In this document: positions 1,554 to 15,359 of the stretch, one piece after another
Position numbering within the stretch: the first letter of the stretch is position 1
Layout: each line of letters begins with the position of its first letter
Translations under genes and position numbers: made by a program
The notes under the pieces: generated by a model
Seen by the model: the letters and a program-made list of their open reading frames with translations, nothing else
Databases searched by the model: none
Told to the model about the DNA's origin: nothing
Assembly: GCA_965216025.1 (NCBI GenBank)
Contig: CBDCEX010000015.1
Span: forward strand, 7,063 to 71,062
DNA from: Dehalococcoidia bacterium
Lineage (GTDB): Bacteria; Chloroflexota; Dehalococcoidia; Lucifugimonadales; UBA3495
Reading direction: 5' to 3'
Length of the DNA: 64,000 nt

Positions 1554-2828
1554 TTAATCTCCACCTTCTGCAACGTCTATTCCCTCCGGTGTGGCGAAAT
1601 ATAACCACGCCTTACCAGTCTTATATCGGTCCACTAATCCAGCTTTCATCAAATCCTCTAGGGCTATATCTGCTGTCTTGCCCTTGTGTTTAACCAGTGA
1701 CCTAACAGCCCGACTACCCGTTACGCCTTCACTTCCCATCTTGGCTATCTCAAAGAGTAGGCTATCGGCAACTTGGGCAGCGTCAATATCCTCTTTCTCA
1801 GGTGGGGTTATCTGATAGGCCAGCACCCCCTCAACATAGGTAGCGACGATGTTGCAGATAGGCTTATTCGGGCTAACCATTAGCTGTCCAGCCCTATCCT
1901 TGTGGTTGACCAATAGCAGCTTCCCACATTCCAGTTGATTCCAAGGTGTGCCAGTAACGAAGATAGCAGCACCCGTCATCTTTGACCGCTTATGCGTACT
2001 CCCAATAGCCCCTAGCGGCCTTTCCTCTTTACGCTTGGGAACATGGTCCAGCAGCAGCAGGGTAGCGCCTATGGATTCCCAAGGCTTGCAGAATTTATCG
2101 AACCAAGGCTTGACCGCGCCGCCGTCACTCGGACAGCCCGCAGATTCGCAAGAGTCTATTACTACCAACCCAGGCCGTTCACCTTTCATTAACCACGCTT
2201 GGGCATAGGGTAGGATGTTGATTTCTTCCTCAGTTTCATCTTCAAGGAAGCTGTCATTGACGAACCGCAAGGCGGGGTTCTCAATTAGATCATCAGCTCC
2301 AAGTGCTGCCAACCTGGTAGCAAGGGTAGCTTGCCTATCCTCAAAATCCCACCATAGGACGTTGGAGCCATTACGGACAGCACTAATAGCCGCCATGATC
2401 GCAACCCAAGTTTTGCCAACGCCAGGCTCGCCAAATACGCTATTGAGCTTGGATTCGTAAAGGATGGTGCGCCCATCATCACGAACCATAAGAGAAGGTA
2501 GGATAGGCGGGTCGGTAAGGGTTACAGGCTGTGCCATGCTGTCGAATGTTCCAGCCATTGCCGCCAGGGTAGCTTTCCGTTCCCTTTCGGAGTAGGTGAA
2601 GTCTAGGCGGTCCTGGTCGCCTTCAAACATAGCCGCGATGGTTTCGGGCTCCAGGTCGTCAATGGTCCAGGCTTGCTCAGGTAAGGCTTGGCCAACTGTG
2701 AGATACCTTTTGTTGTACTCTTGGCAGTCAACGCATGGGCAATCCTCATCGTGGAGAGACCCACCAATGAAAAGCCCTTCGTCGGTTTGACTAAGTAGGA
2801 TGCTTTGGTTTATATTTGTGGCGTTCAT
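1554..2828 (-). CDS. RecA-fold (AAA_25/RepA-like) replication ATPase with N-terminal Cys cluster and C-terminal wHTH-like tail
   Basis: 424-aa ORF. Walker A FGEPGVGKTW, Walker B LVVIDSCES, LLLLDHVPKRK and NHKDRAGQ motifs typical of RecA-family AAA_25 proteins. N-terminal DEDCPCVDCQ. About 45% identical by eye to 7432..8352. Confidence 0.7.
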   Translation of the reverse strand: MNATNINQSILLSQTDEGLFIGGSLHDEDCPCVDCQEYNKRYLTVGQALPEQAWTIDDLEPETIAAMFEGDQDRLDFTYSERERKATLAAMAGTFDSMAQPVTLTDPPILPSLMVRDDGRTILYESKLNSVFGEPGVGKTWVAIMAAISAVRNGSNVLWWDFEDRQATLATRLAALGADDLIENPALRFVNDSFLEDETEEEINILPYAQAWLMKGERPGLVVIDSCESAGCPSDGGAVKPWFDKFCKPWESIGATLLLLDHVPKRKEERPLGAIGSTHKRSKMTGAAIFVTGTPWNQLECGKLLLVNHKDRAGQLMVSPNKPICNIVATYVEGVLAYQITPPEKEDIDAAQVADSLLFEIAKMGSEGVTGSRAVRSLVKHKGKTADIALEDLMKAGLVDRYKTGKAWLYFATPEGIDVAEGGD

Positions 2829-3654: not shown

Positions 3655-4884
3655 ATGAGCAAGCTAACCAATGCAGCAATCAAGGGACTGGACAAGCCGG
3701 GGCGGTATGGGGACGGCGGCGGGCTATACTTGAACGTCGCGCCCGGAGGTTCAAAGTCTTGGATTCAACGAATCAGGATTGACGGCAACCGGACTGACAA
3801 GGGATTGGGCGGGTATCCCGCCATGACTCTTACCAAAGCACGGCAACAGGCAGACGCTAACCGCATAGTGGTTAAAGCGGGCCGCAATCCCTGGACTGAA
3901 AAGCGCATGGCCTCACCCGCGCTGGCTGCACCAGTGGCCGACATTCCGACACTACGGGAAGCCACATACACAGTCCACAACCTCAATGCACCTTCACGTC
4001 CGGCGAGTGCTGCCCGATGGATTGGGCAGCTGGAAAAGCACATCCTTGCCAGTGTTGGCGATACTCCCATTGACGAATTCACCCGCGCGAACTTGGCAGA
4101 GATCATCGGGCCGTTGCGCCAATCAAACCACGAAACATCGCGGAAGGTTAAGCAGGCGCTCCATGACGTTTTCCGCTGGAGCGTAGCAATGGGGCATATC
4201 GCAACTAACCCTGCTGATGATGCCTTGGAAATCCTGTTGCCCAAGGTCCGGAAGGAAGTGACTCACCATCTGGCTTTGCCCCATGGGGAAGTCCGGCGGG
4301 CAGTCCACATGGTCAAGTCCAGTGAGGCACGGCTGGCGACACGTCTACTGCTCCAGTTCATTATCCTAACGGCTGCCCGTGCTGGTGAGGCAAGGCTGTC
4401 AACGTGGGGTGAAATTGACCTGGACGGCGCAACGTGGACGGTCCCGGCTTCCCGAATGAAAAACAACCGCGAACACGTCGTACCTTTGTCGGCGCAAGCC
4501 GCCGGAATACTGAGGCGGGCCAAAGAACTTTACCGCGATCCCGACGAAGAATTTGAATGGACGGTAGATGTTCAACCGGACTGGTGGATATTCCCGAATC
4601 CCAACAACGGCAAGCCTATCTCCGATGCCCTGGCGCAACGGCTGGACAAAGACGGCATACCTTCCACAATGCACGGCTTCAGAACTTCGTTCAGGACGTG
4701 GGCGGCTGAGACCTATGGCGATGATTGGGATACGGCGGCTGAAATGTGCCTCTCTCACTACCCTACCGATGCGGTAGTCAAGGCATACCAGCGGAGCGGC
4801 TTGGTGGATAAGCGCCGGGGACTGTTGGCAGCGTGGGCAGACTACGTTGACCCTGTAGCTTCCGTTGAACCGCCGTTCTCATAG
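3655..4884 (+). CDS. int: tyrosine recombinase, P4-type integrase
   Basis: 409 aa. N-terminal GLYLNVAPGGSKSWIQRIRIDG (DUF4102-type arm-binding domain). C-terminal catalytic region ARAGEA..., HGFRTSFRTWAAE, LSHYPTDAVVKAYQR (catalytic Tyr). Confidence 0.9.
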   Translation: MSKLTNAAIKGLDKPGRYGDGGGLYLNVAPGGSKSWIQRIRIDGNRTDKGLGGYPAMTLTKARQQADANRIVVKAGRNPWTEKRMASPALAAPVADIPTLREATYTVHNLNAPSRPASAARWIGQLEKHILASVGDTPIDEFTRANLAEIIGPLRQSNHETSRKVKQALHDVFRWSVAMGHIATNPADDALEILLPKVRKEVTHHLALPHGEVRRAVHMVKSSEARLATRLLLQFIILTAARAGEARLSTWGEIDLDGATWTVPASRMKNNREHVVPLSAQAAGILRRAKELYRDPDEEFEWTVDVQPDWWIFPNPNNGKPISDALAQRLDKDGIPSTMHGFRTSFRTWAAETYGDDWDTAAEMCLSHYPTDAVVKAYQRSGLVDKRRGLLAAWADYVDPVASVEPPFS

Positions 4885-5226: not shown

Positions 5227-5664
5227 AACAGAAAGCCGGGCGCACCAACGCCCGGCAATCTAAACCAATAAGGAGCATCATGGGTAGTATAACGCCGAAG
5301 TGCATCTATTGTCAATTGGTGCGGAAATCGTTTGGCGGCGATCCCTGCCAATGCCCCAAAGCCATCGCAGCGCTGGGTCCGGTGCTGCTCTGCGAAGAAT
5401 GTAACCAACCGACCTATATGGGAAACGGTAACCCCCGGACTGAAATCTACGGCGGCGGTCCAGCGTGGGAACATTGCAATTGTGCGGGAGCTAAAGCCAG
5501 GGTTGAGGCCAAGAACGCCGCACAAGCCAAGCAATGGGCAGAATTTGAGGCCAAGAAAAAGGAAGAATCTGACAAAGAGGATGCTGCACGGCGCGCAGAC
5601 TGGGCCAAGATGACGCGGCAGTTTGCCAAGGAACAGGCCATCGTCAATGATGATGCGGGCCTAG

Positions 5665-7116
5665 TACTACAACGACGAGTTGTCTGGTAGGATGGCTGGA
5701 CAGATGATGTTGGGTGGTTTGAGTGATGGATGCGGCGAGCTTCGAGCGGGTCTACGACAGCCTTCAGGAATTCCACGCCTTCTTTGCGGCCTCCTTCGGC
5801 CGCAAGCAGTGGCGGGATCACAGCGGGAATTACCTTCAGGCGCTGCTGGTGCAGGACCAGGAGCGGCGCAACGCCGAGAATCTCTCGGAATCGGTGGGCA
5901 TCTCGGCCCGGGCGATGCAGCGCTTTCTCACCGAGGCCCGGTGGTCCGATGAGACAGTCATAGGGCGGTTGCAGGAATACTTGGCCCCCAGGCTGGGACA
6001 CCCGGAGGCGGTGTGGGTGTTCGATGGCAGCGACTTCCCCAAGCAGGGCAGGAAATCGGCGGGAGTGGCCCGGCAGTACTGCGGCAGGCTGGGCAAGGTG
6101 GCCAACTGCCAGGGTGGGATGTTCCTGGCCTACGTCAGCCCGCTGGGCCGGGCGTTGGTGGACAAGCGGCTGTATCTGCCCAAGAGTTGGACCTCCGACC
6201 AGGACCGGTGTGCTGCGGCGGGTGTGCCGGAGGACCGGCGGAACTACCGGTCAAAGACGGAGTTGGCCCTGGAGATGCTGGAGCGGGTCCTGGAGTTGGG
6301 CTACCTCAGGGCCGAGTGGGTTGCCGGAGACGACGCCTTCGGGATGTCGCCGACCTTCCGGGAGGGACTGGCGGCCCTGGGGATGCGCTACGTGCTGGAC
6401 GTTCCGGGCGGCACTACGGTCTGGCCCTTGGACCCGGCTTGGACCAGTCCGGAATATCCGGGGTTCGGCCGCCCCCGCAAACCCAAGCTGCGGCCTGGGC
6501 AGCGGCGGACCATGGAGCAGCGCGGTGATGAACTGCCGGATGAGGCTTGGCGGGAGATAACGGTGGCCCAGGGAAGCCAGGGGCCGCGCACCTACCGGTT
6601 CAGTGCCCAGCGGGTGCGGGCCACCAGGAGGCGCAAGCCCGGCGAGGAACTGTGGGCCGTCTGGCGCCGGAACCTGGACGGCAGCGAGCCCCGCTACTAC
6701 CTGTCCAACGCTCCCGAGGGCACAACCTTGGAGACTCTGGCCTACGTGGGTGGGTCCAGGTGGCGCATTGAAACGGAGTTCGAGACTGAGAAGGGTGACG
6801 TGGGGCTGGACGAATACGAGACCCGCAGCTGGGCAGGGTGGCATCACCACATAGCCATGTGCCTGCTGGGTGGGGCGTTCCTGCTGAGCCTGCAGCAGGA
6901 TTGGGGGGAAAAAGATGCCCCGGATCACGAGGCCACAGGTGTACCGGGTGGTGCGGGAGATGCTGCCCCGGGAGCAGTTCGGGCCCGATCAATTGCTGTT
7001 GTGGCTGGAGGATACGCAGCTACGCAACGAACGGGCTCGCCGTTCCCACGAGAGACGCCGCTCCACCCGCCGCGAAAGCAGGATGGAGCCGCCACCTTAA
7101 ACCCGTCGTTGTAGTA
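5665..7116 (+). mobile_element. IS701-family insertion sequence
   Basis: Terminal inverted repeats (G)TACTACAACGACG at 5665 and 7104-7116. CTAG on both sides (5661-5664 and 7117-7120). Carries a DDE transposase. Confidence 0.85.
5723..7114 (+). CDS. IS701-family DDE transposase (C-terminal ~60 aa out of frame)
   Basis: RWRIETEFETEKGDVGLDEYETRSWAGWHHHIAM is typical of the IS701/IS4 superfamily. After the G6A5 run at ~6903-6913 the family-like tail KKMPRITRPQVYRVVREML..RNERARRSHERRR continues in the +1 frame (ORF 6915..7100). Confidence 0.8.
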   Translation: MMDAASFERVYDSLQEFHAFFAASFGRKQWRDHSGNYLQALLVQDQERRNAENLSESVGISARAMQRFLTEARWSDETVIGRLQEYLAPRLGHPEAVWVFDGSDFPKQGRKSAGVARQYCGRLGKVANCQGGMFLAYVSPLGRALVDKRLYLPKSWTSDQDRCAAAGVPEDRRNYRSKTELALEMLERVLELGYLRAEWVAGDDAFGMSPTFREGLAALGMRYVLDVPGGTTVWPLDPAWTSPEYPGFGRPRKPKLRPGQRRTMEQRGDELPDEAWREITVAQGSQGPRTYRFSAQRVRATRRRKPGEELWAVWRRNLDGSEPRYYLSNAPEGTTLETLAYVGGSRWRIETEFETEKGDVGLDEYETRSWAGWHHHIAMCLLGGAFLLSLQQDWGEKDAPDHEATGVPGGAGDAAPGAVRARSIAVVAGGYAATQRTGSPFPRETPLHPPRKQDGAATLNPSL

Positions 7117-7120
7117 CTAG

Positions 7121-7290
7121 AAGTCTGGCCGGAAAGCCATTGGCCGGGTTTTGCGCTACGCGAAGCAGACGTATTCAAGACTTATATGGCATGGTGGTGC
7201 ATGTAATACGTTGCAACACCCACTATGCCATCGATAATCGACGTTAAGAAAACGCTGGCCTAGGGGGAATCGAGGTTTCCGGCCAGACTT
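7121..7290. mobile_element. 170-bp MITE-like element, copy 1
   Basis: Perfect 19-bp terminal inverted repeat CTAGAAGTCTGGCCGGAAA, counted with the flanking CTAG. Flanked by CTAG at 7117-7120 and 7291-7294. Second copy at 42788..42958. Confidence 0.6.
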
Positions 7291-8356
7291 CTAGCAGGCC
7301 GTGAGCGGCTCCTTAAGGGCCGTGAACTCTCCCGCAGGGAACAACGCCAAGACGACTACGACACCCCACCCCAAGACGACCACACGACCGCCGAGGGCCA
7401 GACCTTTACCGACTTCACGAAGGAAGTAACATTGCTGGGTGTGGACCGACTCCCAGCGGCGTTTGTGCGCTCGGACTGGGCAACGTTGGCATACGAGGGC
7501 AAGTTTAATACCATCTTCGGGGAGGTTGGGTCAGGCAAGACGTGGGTTGCGCTAATGATGGCTATCGAGCGCCTACACGCTGGCCGACACGTGATTTGGT
7601 GGGATACCGAGGACCAGCCATCCACTCTAGCAAGACGCCTCCAAGTCCTGCGGGCTACCGACTTGATCGGTCACCCTGCCTTGAAATGGACTAACGGCGA
7701 CTTTCAAGACAACCCGGCGATAATGGCCGAGGCGCTAGAAGGGCTGGGCAGCGGCAACGGGCCGGGGCTGGTGGTGATTGATTCTGCAACGTCGTTCGGC
7801 TGCCCCAGCGACGGCGGCAACGTAGCCGCTTGGCTGAAAGCCTTTATTGACCCGTGGGAGAACGCGGGCCATTCCGTGGAACTCTTGGATCACGTACCGA
7901 AGCAAAGGAAAGATAGGCCGCGTGGTGGAATAGGCAGCCAGGCTAAGTTGGCCAGAGTAGACGGGTCAGCGCTCTACCTTCACGGCAACCCTTGGAACGC
8001 CACCGAGGGCGGGTATATCCACATGCAAATTCATAAGGATAGGCATGGGCAGCTACCCGCTACACTGATGGGAGCAGCAGCCACTATTACCGCTGAATGG
8101 GATGGGCCTACCCTTGACTATACAGTGGGCCTACCCAATGCTAAGGCTGAGGCTGAGAACTTGGAAGATGAACTGATGGACGCATTGGATCAGGCAGGCC
8201 CAGATGGGGTGCGGGGTGGCCGTGCTGTCCGCGATCTGCTGAAGGGCAAGCGGGCCAAGGATATAGACGCTGCCCGTGAAGAACTGCTGAGCTCTGGTAT
8301 GATTGAGCGGGTGAAAGAGGGTAAGGCATATGTCTATCGATTCGTTGGATGAGTTG

Positions 8357-8475
8357 ACGTTCATTGACGTTTGGGACCACTTGGGACACGCAAACGTCAA
8401 TGAACGTTTGCTGTTTCACCCCTAAGGGGTGAAACACAAACAACAACACGTACAGATACGATTAGGGCGGGACAC
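8357..8475. repeat. palindromes plus GGGAC(C)AC motifs 3' of ATPase 2; candidate origin or terminator region of element 2
   Basis: Perfect 17-bp inverted repeat ACGTTCATTGACGTTTG (8357-8373 / 8391-8407). Its loop holds GGGACCAC and GGGACACG. Second palindrome GTTTCACCC-CTAA-GGGGTGAAAC (8413-8435). GGGACAC again at 8469. Confidence 0.5.
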
Positions 8476-8952: not shown

Positions 8953-9207
8953 ATGAAGTACCTGCTGAATAACAACACGGTCAACGAGAAACTGACGAAC
9001 GGGAGCGTGGACTTGGAGAAAGCCGCGACGGGGCGGGATGAGGTGCTAAGTGCGCTCGATGCAATCATGCCATGCCTACCCGGCTCTGCACCGCTCAAAG
9101 TTGAGTACGGCAAGATTAAGAGTGCTGCTAGGTGCGTTCGTATCGCGAACGGTCGTCTTAGTGAGATTCTAAAACTGCTCCCGGAGGAAGCCTTGAGGAA
9201 GCGGTAG
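8953..9207 (+). CDS. hypothetical protein immediately upstream of terminase (position suggests small terminase subunit)
   Basis: 84-aa ORF ending 4 nt before the terminase start. The function is guessed from position only. Confidence 0.35.
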   Translation: MKYLLNNNTVNEKLTNGSVDLEKAATGRDEVLSALDAIMPCLPGSAPLKVEYGKIKSAARCVRIANGRLSEILKLLPEEALRKR

Positions 9208-9210
9208 GTT

Positions 9211-10743
9211 TTGATTGTGAAGGAGTTGATACCGAGTCTGCAATCCGCACCAGTCGGCGACGGGGACCTTATCGGCCAGCCGTTCAAGGTGATGCCGTAT
9301 CAGCGCAAGTTCCTGGACGGGGCATTCAAGTCTGGCATCCTCCGGGCCGGTTTGACTTTGGCGAGAGGCGGCGGAAAAAGCGGATTGGCCTCGGCGTTGG
9401 CGCTGGACAGCATTCGACCGGCTGGGGCACTTCACGTCGTGGGTGGCGAGACGGTGCTTGTGGCCAGCAGCTTCGCCCAGGCAAGGATCGTTTTCGAGGC
9501 GGTGAAGACATCTCTGGAGCTGATGGGGGAGGATGGCGAGTACCGGATCAGGGATCAGCAAAACCTTGCGGACATTCAGCACCGGGAAACGAAGGCACGG
9601 CTGAGGGTGGCCGGTTCTGATAATCGAAGGGCCCATGGTTGGCGGTTCAACCTGGCCATCGTCGACGAACCTGCACAGCACGGGCCACGGGGAGAGATAC
9701 TCGCGGCGGCGATCAGGACGGCGTTGGGTAAGCGCAAGGATGCGAGGGTTATCTACATCGGCACCAGGCCGTCAAGCGACGCCCACTTCTTCGCGCGGCT
9801 GCTGGACGAGAACGACCCCAGCGTGTTCTCCCTGGTGTACGCCGCTGATGACGCTGATGACCCCTTCTCCAAGAAGACGTGGGCCAAGGCGAACCCTGCG
9901 CTGCGGTACGGGATGCCCAACATAGAAGTCCTGCGAGCTGAGGCGCGGATGGCGAAGAGGGACCCGGCGGAGCTGGCGACGTTCCGCAGCCTACGACTGA
10001 ATCAGGGAACCAGCGAACCAGCGAAGTTGAGAGCCAGCACTTGATAGACTCACTTGTCTGGAAGTCCATCGAAACCGAGGAACTGCCGCCGGCGGAGGGG
10101 CCAATGAGCCTTGGGATTGATCTCGGAGGAACGGCTGCCTTCTGTGCGGCGGCGGCGTGGTGGCCTCAAACTCACAGATTAGAAGGGTTTGTCGCTTGCG
10201 GCACCAGTCCACCACTGAGCGAACGGGCGCTGGCCGATGGCGTCAGCGGCGTGTATGAGGCGATGCGCGACCGCAACGAGCTGGTGCAGTTGGGCAACCG
10301 TGTGGTGCCGGTCGGTGTGTTTCTGCAAGAGGCCGTCAACCGCTTTGGCAAACCGCAGGCTATCAGCGCCGATAGGTGGCGCGCCGGTGAGTTGGAAGAC
10401 GGAGTTAAAGACGTGGGCCTGAACCTGCCTGAACCTGCCTGAACCCACCTGGCGCGGGCAGGGATGGCGCGATGGTGCTGTTGACGTGAGGGCATTCCGA
10501 TCTGCGGTACTGGAAGGCAAGGTAGCGGCGCCGGTGTCCATGGCGATGCGGGCGGCACTGTCTGAGGCCAAGACGGTAGCGGACAGTTCGGCGAATGAGA
10601 AACTGGCGAAGTCCGGTGAAGGACAACATCGTCGCCGTGGACGTGATGACCTTGCCGCTGCCATCGTCTTGGCGATTGCTGAAGGCACCAGACGGGAGGC
10701 AGACAAGCCTGTCTCCCGTGGGCGGTATCGGGGCAGAATCTAA
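9211..10743 (+). pseudogene. phage terminase large subunit, broken into three frames by two short tandem duplications
   Basis: The three pieces are 9211..10044, 10041..10442 and 10486..10743. Motifs: PYQRKFL..LARGGGKSGL (P-loop), NLAIVDEPAQ (Walker B), GIDLGGTAAF (nuclease). GAACCAGC x2 at 10007-10022 and GAACCTGCCT x2 at 10421-10440. Removing one copy of each restores a single frame. Confidence 0.8.
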
Positions 10744-13135: not shown

Positions 13136-13700
13136 ATATCCTGTCTTTGAAGAGCAGCTTGAAATCCGGCAAGAAGGCGGCCGGCCGGTCCTGACCGCCA
13201 CCTTTCCGCTGAACCGGACCGCCACCACCAGCAACGTGGGGCGTGTTCGGAAAGAACGGTTTGCCAGCGGTTCCATGTCCTGGCAGACACGGGAATTTGC
13301 CAAGTTGCAGGACGAAATGGCGACCGTCCTATCTCGTGGCGTTGACGACTTCATGGCCCAACGGCGTGTCGCTGAACTTGACGAACAGTTGGAGCGGAGG
13401 AACACCCACCTGCTGGTAGGCCACTCATACGACCATGCCATTGCCGACACGAAGAGCGGCAACCTGGCGATACAGCACACCGATGAAGCTGTGTTCCTTC
13501 GGGCTGAACTGCCACCGGAGGGAGAGCAACCGAGTTGGGTTAAGGACGCAGTTCTAGCGGTGCGTGGGCGTCAACTTCGGGGTATCAGCCCTGGATTCCA
13601 AGTAACGCCGCAGGGCCGGCAGCGCCTGGTGCCGGAGGATGGGCCGGGTGATTCCCTCGTGCGGGAAATCCAAGATTCGACGGTGTACGAGTACTCCCTA
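13125..13700 (+). pseudogene. HK97-family prohead protease (S78/U35-like), 3' end cut off by IS630 copy A
   Basis: LLVGHSYDHAIA (His), RGISPGFQV (Ser), VYEYSL. The native sequence stops at the IS end at 13700/13701; the ORF tail NQSQGGNYIGQ is IS sequence. Confidence 0.7.
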
Positions 13701-14857
13701 AACCAAAGCCAAGGTGGGAACTACATTGGGCAGTGATGGCAAAGGCACGGCAGGTGTAAAGATCAAAGCATCGGCTCGGGCCTGTAACCGGGTTGGGCAG
13801 CGATGTTTCACTTCATCCTTACGATGAATTAGCCCGCCGAAGAATTGATTCATCTTCTCTTGGACTTTGGCTTTTGTTCCCAGGCATTCGTTGGCCGTGA
13901 CCTCTTCTCTGGCCCAGTCCCAGACGGCTTCGTCGGCGTTGAAGTCTGGGCTGTAGGCCGGTAAGGCCACCAACCTCAGATGCAAGTCAGGAGTGGTCAA
14001 ATAGCTGCGAATCGCTGCTCCTCGGTGGGCTGGCCCATTGTCCCAGATTACTACCAGAGGTCCAGGATGGTTTGCTCTTAGCTGCTGTAAAAAGGCGGTG
14101 GAGGTCTCGGCATTGCTGTTTCCAGCTATTTCCATGGCTTCCACCTCCCCAGTCTCCAGACAAACTCCCGAGTAGTAGCAGGCCTTCTCTCCCCACCGAG
14201 GACTGGTGGAGTCCACCAGCGCTGCCTCTCCCTTGAGTACCCATTTGCCTCGCAGGTCGGCATCGGCCCGAAAGTGGGCTTCATCCACGAAGAAGATCTT
14301 GGCTCCATTCTCTTGGGCCTCCTCTCGGATTTGGCTGTACTGGAGGACGAAGGCTTTCCGTTCTTCATCCTTGGCTTTCAGGAGGCGTTTCTTGGGTCGC
14401 TTCAGCACGAAGCCCAACCGATGGAGGTAGTTCAAGCAACTGCTCCGACTCAGCCCCAGGTCAAAGCTCTGCTTGAGAAATTGCCTTACTACTTTCCAGT
14501 TCCAGTTGGACAATTCAATCCCCGCCTCCCCAGGCGGATTTTGCATCGCAGACTTCAGTTGGTTCTGTTGACCTCGGTTCAAGACGGGGGGGAACCCCCA
14601 GTCTGCTCAAAGACCAAACCTTGGGCCCCGCCTTGGCGAAAGTTGTCCTGCCAGTTTCCGATGGTATGAGGCTCTCTCTCCAAAGCCTCAGCCACTTGAG
14701 TGGCCGACCACCCTTGGGCCAACAACCATAGCCCATGCCATCGCTCTCGCTCCCGAGGTGTTGGCGCCCGATACATCCTTTCCCGTAAGTCGCCTACATC
14801 CAGTTGCCACCGTTCTAGGAGTTGCACTATGTCTGTCATCCCTTCCCCCACCGCCAA
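13698..14857 (-). CDS. IS630-family transposase (orfA 14579..14857 HTH, orfB 13698..14582 DDE; +1 shift needed at a C7 run)
   Basis: orfA ends ..FEQTGGSPPS-stop. orfB begins LNRGQQNQLK.. in the +1 frame; one extra C would give a typical IS630 GG-PP-L junction. The stop TAG is made from the TA duplication plus a flanking G. Confidence 0.85.
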
Positions 14858-14929
14858 TCGACTTCTTTTACAGAATATCGCAACTCCTCTTCGGGTTCGC
14901 TTTATGTAGGTTTCACCTTAGATTTGGTT
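13701..14929 (-). mobile_element. IS630-family IS, type 1, copy A (1229 bp)
   Basis: Ends AACCAAAGCCAAGGTGGGAACTACAT / ATGTAGGTTTCACCTTAGATTTGGTT. TA on both sides within C-TA..TA-G. The flanks are unrelated genes (phage protease | dppC-like permease). Confidence 0.9.
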
Positions 14930-14931
14930 TA

Positions 14932-15359
14932 GTCTGGTCAACGTCATGATTGCGGTGTCGGTAGTTTGGTGGACCGGGCACGCTCGGGTGATTCGGGGCA
15001 TGGTGCTATCGGCGCGACAACGAGAGTATGTGGTAGCCGCCCGGGCCATCGGTGCCAGCGACCTCAGGATCGTGGGATATCACATTGCTCGCAATATCCT
15101 GGGTCCCTTCGTGGTGCTGGCCAGCCTGGATATGGGGTGGATTCTTCTAGGCATAGCCGGTCTGAACTTCCTGGGTTTGGGTGCCCAGCCACCGACACCA
15201 GAGTGGGGAGCAATACTTAACGACTCGCGGTCTTATTTGCAGACGGCGCCCCGGCTTTTGCTTTTCCCAGGCACTGCTATCTTCCTTTTGGTACTGGGAT
15301 TTAACCTTTTAGGGGATGGCCTGAGAGATGTACTGGATCCTACTACTTACCGGCGCTGA
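14932..15359 (+). pseudogene. oligopeptide/dipeptide ABC transporter permease (DppC/OppC-like), C-terminal fragment
   Basis: ..VVWWTGHARVIRGMVLSARQREYVVAARAIGASDLRIV..LGLGAQPPTPEWG.. is the C-terminal half of a binding-protein-dependent permease. The frame is open right up to the IS end at 14931; the N-terminal half is missing. Confidence 0.75.

Follow-up and report, generated by a model that had tools for sequence, protein, structure and literature searches.

A gene in two pieces and its intact counterpart

The DNA analyzed here is a window of 64,000 nucleotides, positions 7063–71062 of contig C15, from the 5.25-Mb genome (G000; 18 contigs, 94.5% complete, 4.7% contamination) of an uncultured Chloroflexota bacterium. 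Its segment 5280–8352 corresponds to a single gene within a small prophage-like element in decay (integrase, ATPase, terminase, neck protein and capsid protein), and this gene, encoding the ATPase, is interrupted by an insertion sequence (IS) of the IS701 family and by a miniature inverted-repeat transposable element (MITE), both seated on the tetranucleotide CTAG. On the forward strand, the 5′ part of the gene (5280–5664) ends in a first CTAG (5661–5664), which is followed by the 1452-bp IS (5665–7116), a second CTAG (7117–7120), the non-coding 170-bp MITE (7121–7290) and a third CTAG on the right-hand side (7291–7294), with the 3′ part of the gene then running from 7295 to 8352. These three CTAG copies were read from the sequence and checked by script. 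The first is the original left target tetranucleotide, and the sole CTAG present here in related contigs with an empty site, while the second stands between the two inserts, as right-hand flank of the IS and left-hand flank of the MITE, and would have been produced by entry of the IS into the left CTAG of the MITE.

Position 5661 is in phase with the open reading frame (ORF) starting at ATG 5280, and position 7291 with the ORF ending at 8352, each opening a CTA codon. Joining 5280–5664 to 7295–8352 gives 1443 nt, that is, 480 codons and a stop with zero internal stops; an AAGGAG ribosome-binding site precedes ATG 5280, and the insertion point lies at residues 127/128 of the resulting protein. 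The 5′ part comprises codons 1–127 and the first base of codon 128, and encodes two cysteine-rich (CxxC...CxC), zinc-ribbon-like motifs plus the N-terminal half of a long helix; the 3′ part encodes the remainder of that helix, a linker, the core assigned to Pfam AAA_25 and a C-terminal winged helix. In the window as it stands, the N-terminal ORF continues for 26 nt inside the IS to a stop at 5690, giving a product of 136 aa (P0122), and the 3′ fragment is called by the ORF finder as a 306-aa ORF starting at TTG 7432. An earlier sequence-only reading of this DNA had described the order gene, CTAG, IS of 1452 bp, CTAG, MITE of 170 bp, CTAG, gene, with equal codon phase at 5661 and 7291; the order is right to the base and the phase is borne out. 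That reading had also predicted that deletion of 5665–7294 would fuse the two ORFs into a protein of about 480 aa, and the deletion indeed yields 480 aa, identical at 476 of 480 positions, without gaps, to a natural intact allele.

This allele, protein P0132, is encoded uninterrupted on metagenome contigs L007 and L008, shares its residues 1–127 with the 5′ part in the window, and belongs to the 90%-identity cluster holding the window's own fragments. Empty sites with a single CTAG are present in contigs that are 96.8–99.5% identical to the window flanks. Searching 5.8 billion proteins with the join returned many single-ORF homologs of 430–510 aa (52–58% identity, 99–100% coverage), which open with MGS(I/V)T..C.YC...GDPC.C followed by a charged region and then the ATPase, and whose alignment is uninterrupted over the junction (..DA.L.DRER..). 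Close alleles were also sought in 40 representative genomes, where none was found; two distant matches of 69–72% DNA identity were returned, and only the one in G014 crosses the junction. A profile search with the ATPase family alignment in a collection of genome contigs gave zero matches. Given the intact single-ORF alleles and homologs, ORFs 5280–5690 and 7432–8352 are by-products of the insertions and neither is a real gene, as the sequence-only reading had held. The pair at 5280–8352 is therefore best recorded in annotation as one pseudogene of a 480-aa zinc-ribbon/RecA-fold ATPase.

The joined protein matches Pfam AAA_25 (PF13481) at 41 bits, against a gathering cut-off of 27, and has the Walker A motif GEVGSGKT, with G204, E205, G209 and K210 invariant in a 14-sequence alignment (A1). 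With 48 homologs as input, AlphaFold2 gave a model of P0132 (mean predicted local distance difference test score, pLDDT, 82.6) that comprises a single long helix at 69–151, about 80 residues in length and with the insertion point, 127/128, halfway along it, a RecA-like core at 180–407, mostly with pLDDT above 85 and with dips near 300 and 340, and a winged helix at 419–478. The top Foldseek matches of the model are RAD51, KaiC and RecA (probability 1.0, E 2e-10 to 1e-8), with template modeling (TM) scores up to 0.68 when normalized on the KaiC C1 domain. Distant homologs have their parts in the order zinc ribbon, long helix, RecA-fold AAA_25 core and winged helix. Among the members of AAA_25 are RepA-like replicative helicases encoded by plasmids and by integrated elements. 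The split protein is like other AAA_25 ATPases in its above-cut-off match, its Walker A motif, its RecA/RAD51/KaiC-like fold and its integrase neighbor within a mobile element, and differs from them in the added N-terminal zinc-ribbon region, the helix of about 80 residues and the C-terminal winged helix; none of the solved structures is close to it in sequence. This zinc-ribbon/AAA_25 family of prophage ATPases without a solved relative is a new addition. Comparison with ATPase 1, a paralog in a neighboring element (1554–2828, reverse strand) to which the sequence-only reading had ascribed the same architecture, sustains that claim for the C-terminal ATPase part, which is 43% identical over 318 residues, and not for the N-terminal parts, which cannot be aligned: ATPase 1 starts with a single CPCVDC cluster and is without the first CxxC pair.

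The two inserted elements

The IS has terminal inverted repeats TACTACAACGACG, perfect over 13/13 positions and matching at 16/17, and its transposase gene (5723–7114, forward strand; 463 aa) matches the NCBIfam model for IS701-family transposases, NF033540, at 358.7 bits (cut-off 150; model positions 1–360 of 363) and Pfam DDE_5 (E 1.2e-57), so that its earlier assignment to IS701 is upheld. Elements of this family measure 1400–1550 bp and have a target duplication of exactly 4 bp in almost all members (De Palmenaer et al. 2008, PMC2266710). Their terminal consensus, ---YACT-Y--YR (PMC2266710), fits (TAG)TACTACAACG when counting starts from the TAG of the flanking CTAG, and does not fit when counting starts from 5665. 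With its 1452 bp, single DDE transposase ORF and 4-bp duplication the present element conforms to the family. It differs in the nearly exclusive use of CTAG (45 full copies were found in the genome, most of them 99.1–100% identical to the window copy, and 41 of the 45 have CTAG on each side), in its copy number of at least 45, and in the presence of a second subfamily, about 81% identical and with ends TATTACAACG. ISGka1/2 of Geobacillus, also IS701 members, produce 4–9-bp repeats and have no consensus target (PMC8024623), in contrast to the CTAG use of the window's IS. A single copy in the genome is bordered by CTAA on both sides, which supports a true 4-bp target duplication by the IS and excludes, for that copy, a duplication of TA only. 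The element is a new member of the IS701 type, from an uncultured Chloroflexota genome.

The MITE has perfect terminal inverted repeats AAGTCTGGCCGGAAA (15/15), and a further CTAG lies inside it, at position 140. Its family counts 109 near-full copies in the genome, almost all with CTAG on both sides, and includes subfamilies about 81–86% identical to the window copy. The numbers of full IS copies and of near-full MITE copies, together with the CTAG flanks of 41 of the former and most of the latter, mean that the arrangement at 5661 is not due to chance, and annotation should label the 1452-bp insert an IS701-family element and the 170-bp insert a MITE. Cytosine occupies position −5 at 98 of 142 MITE ends, which extends the target to cCTAGg; the site at 5661 matches half of this. 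The duplication made by the MITE can be taken as CTAG, or as TA with element ends one base longer (7120–7291), the sequence being the same in both cases because CTAG is palindromic. MITE copies beside IS630 ends have TTAG..CTAG or CTAG..CTAA flanks, which might be read as proof that the MITE duplicates TA only; that reading was rejected, since later entry of IS630 into the TA of the flanking CTAG gives an identical sequence, and these copies favor neither duplication.

The MITE is like other bacterial MITEs, which are nonautonomous IS derivatives, in its length of 170 bp, perfect terminal inverted repeats, lack of coding sequence, 109 copies and constant target flanks, and unlike them in that no full-length parent with identical ends was found in this genome: a search for an autonomous parent gave no element longer than 300 bp with both MITE ends, apart from composites. 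The ends nearest to those of the MITE belong to a CTAG-flanked element of about 1.88 kb (AAACCCGGCTGAAAAG versus AAGTCTGGCCGGAAAG; similar, not identical), the 567-aa transposase of which places it in the IS1182 family (NF033551, 306 bits against a cut-off of 270).

Elsewhere in the window, an IS630-family element at 13698–14932 (NF033545, 144 bits; inverted repeats CTAAACCAAAGCCAAGG.../...TTTGGTTTAG) sits in a C-TA...TA-G site and is a third type of CTAG user in this DNA. According to Tenzen and Ohtsubo (1991), a work listed in the references of PMC2170065, IS630 prefers the TA within 5′-CTAG-3′. The elements at the split gene share this target with IS630, and IS630-family copies in the genome lie in C-TA-...-TA-G sites and occupy CTAGs together with MITE and IS701 copies, but the IS at 5665–7116 is not of the IS630 family. 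At least four transposon families in the genome target CTAG (those of IS701 type, the MITE, IS1182 type and IS630 type), and CTAG is strongly under-represented there: at 58.7% G+C, base composition predicts 19275 sites, and 7432 are present.

States of the site and order of events

Contigs of several public metagenome assemblies carry the same element next to the same host genes, and each was assigned a state by classifying the sequence between the two flanks at the 5661 CTAG. The site is empty, with one CTAG, in L001 (=L025), L007, L008, L019, L022, L026 and L027. MITE-A in forward orientation and without the IS is present in full in L029, at the left junction in L030 and L031, and at the right junction in L016–L018, whereas L015, L020 and L028 have MITE-A reversed and L009–L013 and L021 have a reversed MITE that is about 86% identical to it (MITE-B). 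Presence of the MITE at this site thus differs among strains, and the combination of IS701 with forward MITE-A occurs in the window only. In L014 (=L024) and L023 a further state is seen: reversed MITE-A breaks off after 27 bp, at its internal CTAG, where an IS1182-family element of about 1.8 kb with a 567-aa transposase takes over (L014:1499–3363); the rest of the MITE is gone and the IS adjoins the CTAG of the right flank, which means insertion accompanied by adjacent deletion.

Three of these contigs bear on the order of the two insertions in the window. Once the IS is left out of the window, L029 matches it at 99.66% identity; this contig has the MITE in the same orientation at 170/170 positions and carries the window's own 409-aa integrase allele, and L030 and L031, from two further samples, read from the left flank through CTAG into the forward MITE. 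The 156-aa ORF predicted for the state with forward MITE only exists as an exact record, P0135, on a 425-kb contig. Together, the MITE-only contigs and P0135 indicate that the MITE came first. The sequence-only reading had seen the order of events (MITE first, or both into the same tetranucleotide) in the structure itself; the structure alone does not decide it, either order yielding the same sequence, and it is by way of the MITE-only contigs that precedence of the MITE stands.

We consider it very likely that one gene, the intact form of which encodes a 480-aa protein, was split at one CTAG by the MITE and then by the IS701-family element. On this account the 170-bp MITE entered the CTAG of codons 127–128, within the long helix, leaving a CTAG on each side, after which the IS701-family element, which duplicates 4 bp and nearly always chooses CTAG here, entered the left-hand copy and so created the third. 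What gene calling now sees is an N-terminal stub of 136 aa and a C-terminal ORF of 306 aa. The first of these steps is founded on natural intermediates and the second on comparison of the window with those intermediates. As to why this position was hit, several families use CTAG and each insertion renews CTAG at both ends; CTAG is rare in the genome, and this particular one is probably a preferred target.

Several observations weigh against this account, or against parts of it. The proposed order presumes that the IS inserts more often than it is precisely excised, for excision from an ancestor with both IS and MITE also gives the MITE-only state, though we hold such excision to be an unlikely source of it; and the IS at this position is known from one assembly, none of the other assemblies examined having it there. 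On the side of the protein, the cysteine-rich N-terminal zinc-ribbon region is poorly resolved in the AlphaFold2 model (pLDDT 42–66), the ATPase, searched by sequence as a single query against the Protein Data Bank, gave no match, and a profile search of the same database reached RecA and KaiC only in their generic P-loop region. That the split gene would encode the replication or DNA-handling ATPase of the element follows from family and gene context only.

Since CTAG is renewed each time and the final sequence is equal under either order, the same structure would arise had the IS entered first and the MITE later into the right-hand CTAG, or had both arrived as one unit, and a forward IS, CTAG and forward MITE do adjoin in this way elsewhere in the genome (for example C12:258432–260056). 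This is nevertheless quite improbable: the identical MITE occurs without the IS in three contigs and in one exact ORF record, with L029 sharing the window's integrase allele, whereas the IS-only state was not seen at this CTAG among the contigs classified and P0122, the ORF reading into the IS, is recorded solely on the window's own contig. Arrival as a fixed unit is further contradicted by the finding that IS and MITE adjoin genome-wide in all four relative orientations. Restriction of the IS junction to the window's contig, combined with the at least 45 near-identical IS copies, could also be taken to mean that the IS is a repeat copy misplaced in assembly of the metagenome-assembled genome (MAG), the true state being MITE-only. 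We give this very little credence, as the junctions are exact, the inverted repeats complete, CTAG is present on each side and the left side is unique gene sequence; a misplaced repeat does not normally make a perfect target-site duplication, and the 526-kb contig runs through many such copies.

Normally there might be two genes, one for the cysteine-rich ORF and one for the ATPase ORF, and the open joined frame would be a coincidence; such a reading could draw on the many ATPase-only proteins of 265–370 aa called in the family. The short calls examined, P0001, P0125 and P0134, however, trace back to copies that have lost the start codon or carry a 1-bp indel or an insertion, and intact single ORFs of 430–510 aa are common, one of them 99% identical to the join, so that this explanation is already refuted.

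Setting, choice of site and meaning

The ATPase gene has as neighbors a tyrosine integrase, fragments of a terminase, a neck protein and a capsid-like protein, and the element is broken at other places too in this genome. The integrase gene (3655–4884, forward strand) has the Pfam domains Arm-DNA-bind_3, Phage_int_M and Phage_integrase, and the order integrase, small ORF, ATPase is repeated in L001, L002 and L009–L028. In the window the large terminase (9211–10442) is no longer a single ORF: it is spread over at least two frames, one of 277 aa and one of 133 aa, each matching phrog_9. Elsewhere (L002, L020, L021) it forms one ORF of 502–505 aa. Directly 3′ of the ATPase stop, a 51-bp hairpin-like palindrome (8357–8407) lies in the opposite orientation in L016–L018 and is visible as a block of differences in the haplotype table; iterons had been pointed out in that region. 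Copies of the gene in L001, L009–L012, L022 and L027, which have an empty site or MITE-B, show a 1-bp deletion in the run ACTGGGCC that leaves a 110-aa stub ending in ..ADWPR, and in L001 (5660–6000 region) the start codon is altered as well, from ATG to ATT. These changes are either differences among strains in how the gene was broken or homopolymer errors of long-read sequencing. As for the host, the RpoB of the genome is at best 66–67% identical to RpoB of Dehalococcoidia MAGs, with other Chloroflexota next.

Eight CTAGs are present in the prophage-like element, and across 12 loci only those at 5661 and 9128 are occupied. The latter (9128–9131) lies between an 84-aa ORF (8953–9207) and the terminase start at 9211 and is empty in the window; in other contigs it holds an IS630 copy (L019, L022, L027), MITE-A reversed (L023, L024), a MITE of 85% identity (L028) or a MITE with an IS630 copy (L020). 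Six independent primary insertions on two of eight CTAGs have a probability of about 0.007 under even use of sites. Within the ATPase gene itself, the CTAGs at 7627 and 7735 were never hit in the 12 loci, which means that selection on the gene does not explain the choice of site.

At the 5661 CTAG, the flanks of the forward, reversed and subfamily-B MITE states differ in haplotype, from which at least two, and probably three, independent MITE insertions would follow. Recurrent occupancy might instead reflect one old MITE insertion that later inverted where it stood or was carried from strain to strain by recombination, as forward and reversed copies of MITE-A are 99.4–100% identical and inverted ends of 15–19 bp could support inversion. 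We regard this as unlikely: the MITE of the third state is only about 86% identical and cannot stem from the same insertion, the haplotype difference separates forward from reversed copies as well, and the second CTAG, at 9128, has the same pile-up of different elements.

Genome-wide, 38 of 185 ends of IS701-type elements abut a MITE end through a common CTAG, where random choice among CTAGs would give 2.9% (P about 4e-21); a further 18 ends meet IS1182-like ends. Such back-to-back pairs of an IS701-type element and a MITE on one CTAG are found, for instance, at C12:258432–260056, C15:335802–337427 and C17:777382–779007, and some MITEs in the genome have an IS on both sides. Much of the MITE-adjacent excess could come from purifying selection, because insertion at a MITE-flanking CTAG is sure to do no harm. 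The CTAG internal to the MITE (40 sites) is equally harmless and was used only once (P 0.011–0.036), and for this reason a real target preference may be at work as well. Tentatively, and with the odds in our judgment against it, the IS701-type transposase and the mover of the MITE may recognize more than CTAG, such as DNA shape or sequence at the transposon end. If this is true, the pile-up would be more than neutral accumulation: a few CTAGs, and those flanking MITEs, would be real hot spots, nested clusters of CTAG-specific elements would result, and the same prophage gene would be knocked out repeatedly at the same codon across strains.

Disruption of genes by IS elements, bacterial MITEs and nested insertions are well established. 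So are the 4-bp duplication of IS701 elements (PMC2266710) and the use of CTAG by IS630. In this light the locus shows gene decay of an ordinary sort, if cleanly documented, and no new kind of system; mildly novel would be only a true recognition of transposon ends as the cause of the clustering. What is new consists of the IS701-type element and the MITE in Chloroflexota, the zinc-ribbon/AAA_25 family of prophage ATPases and the complete series of natural states. Such a series within one population, from empty through MITE only to MITE plus IS, and with independent hits on one tetranucleotide besides, is rare, and it makes the locus well suited to testing how CTAG-specific elements choose their targets and how an IS-rich Chloroflexota genome takes apart a prophage.

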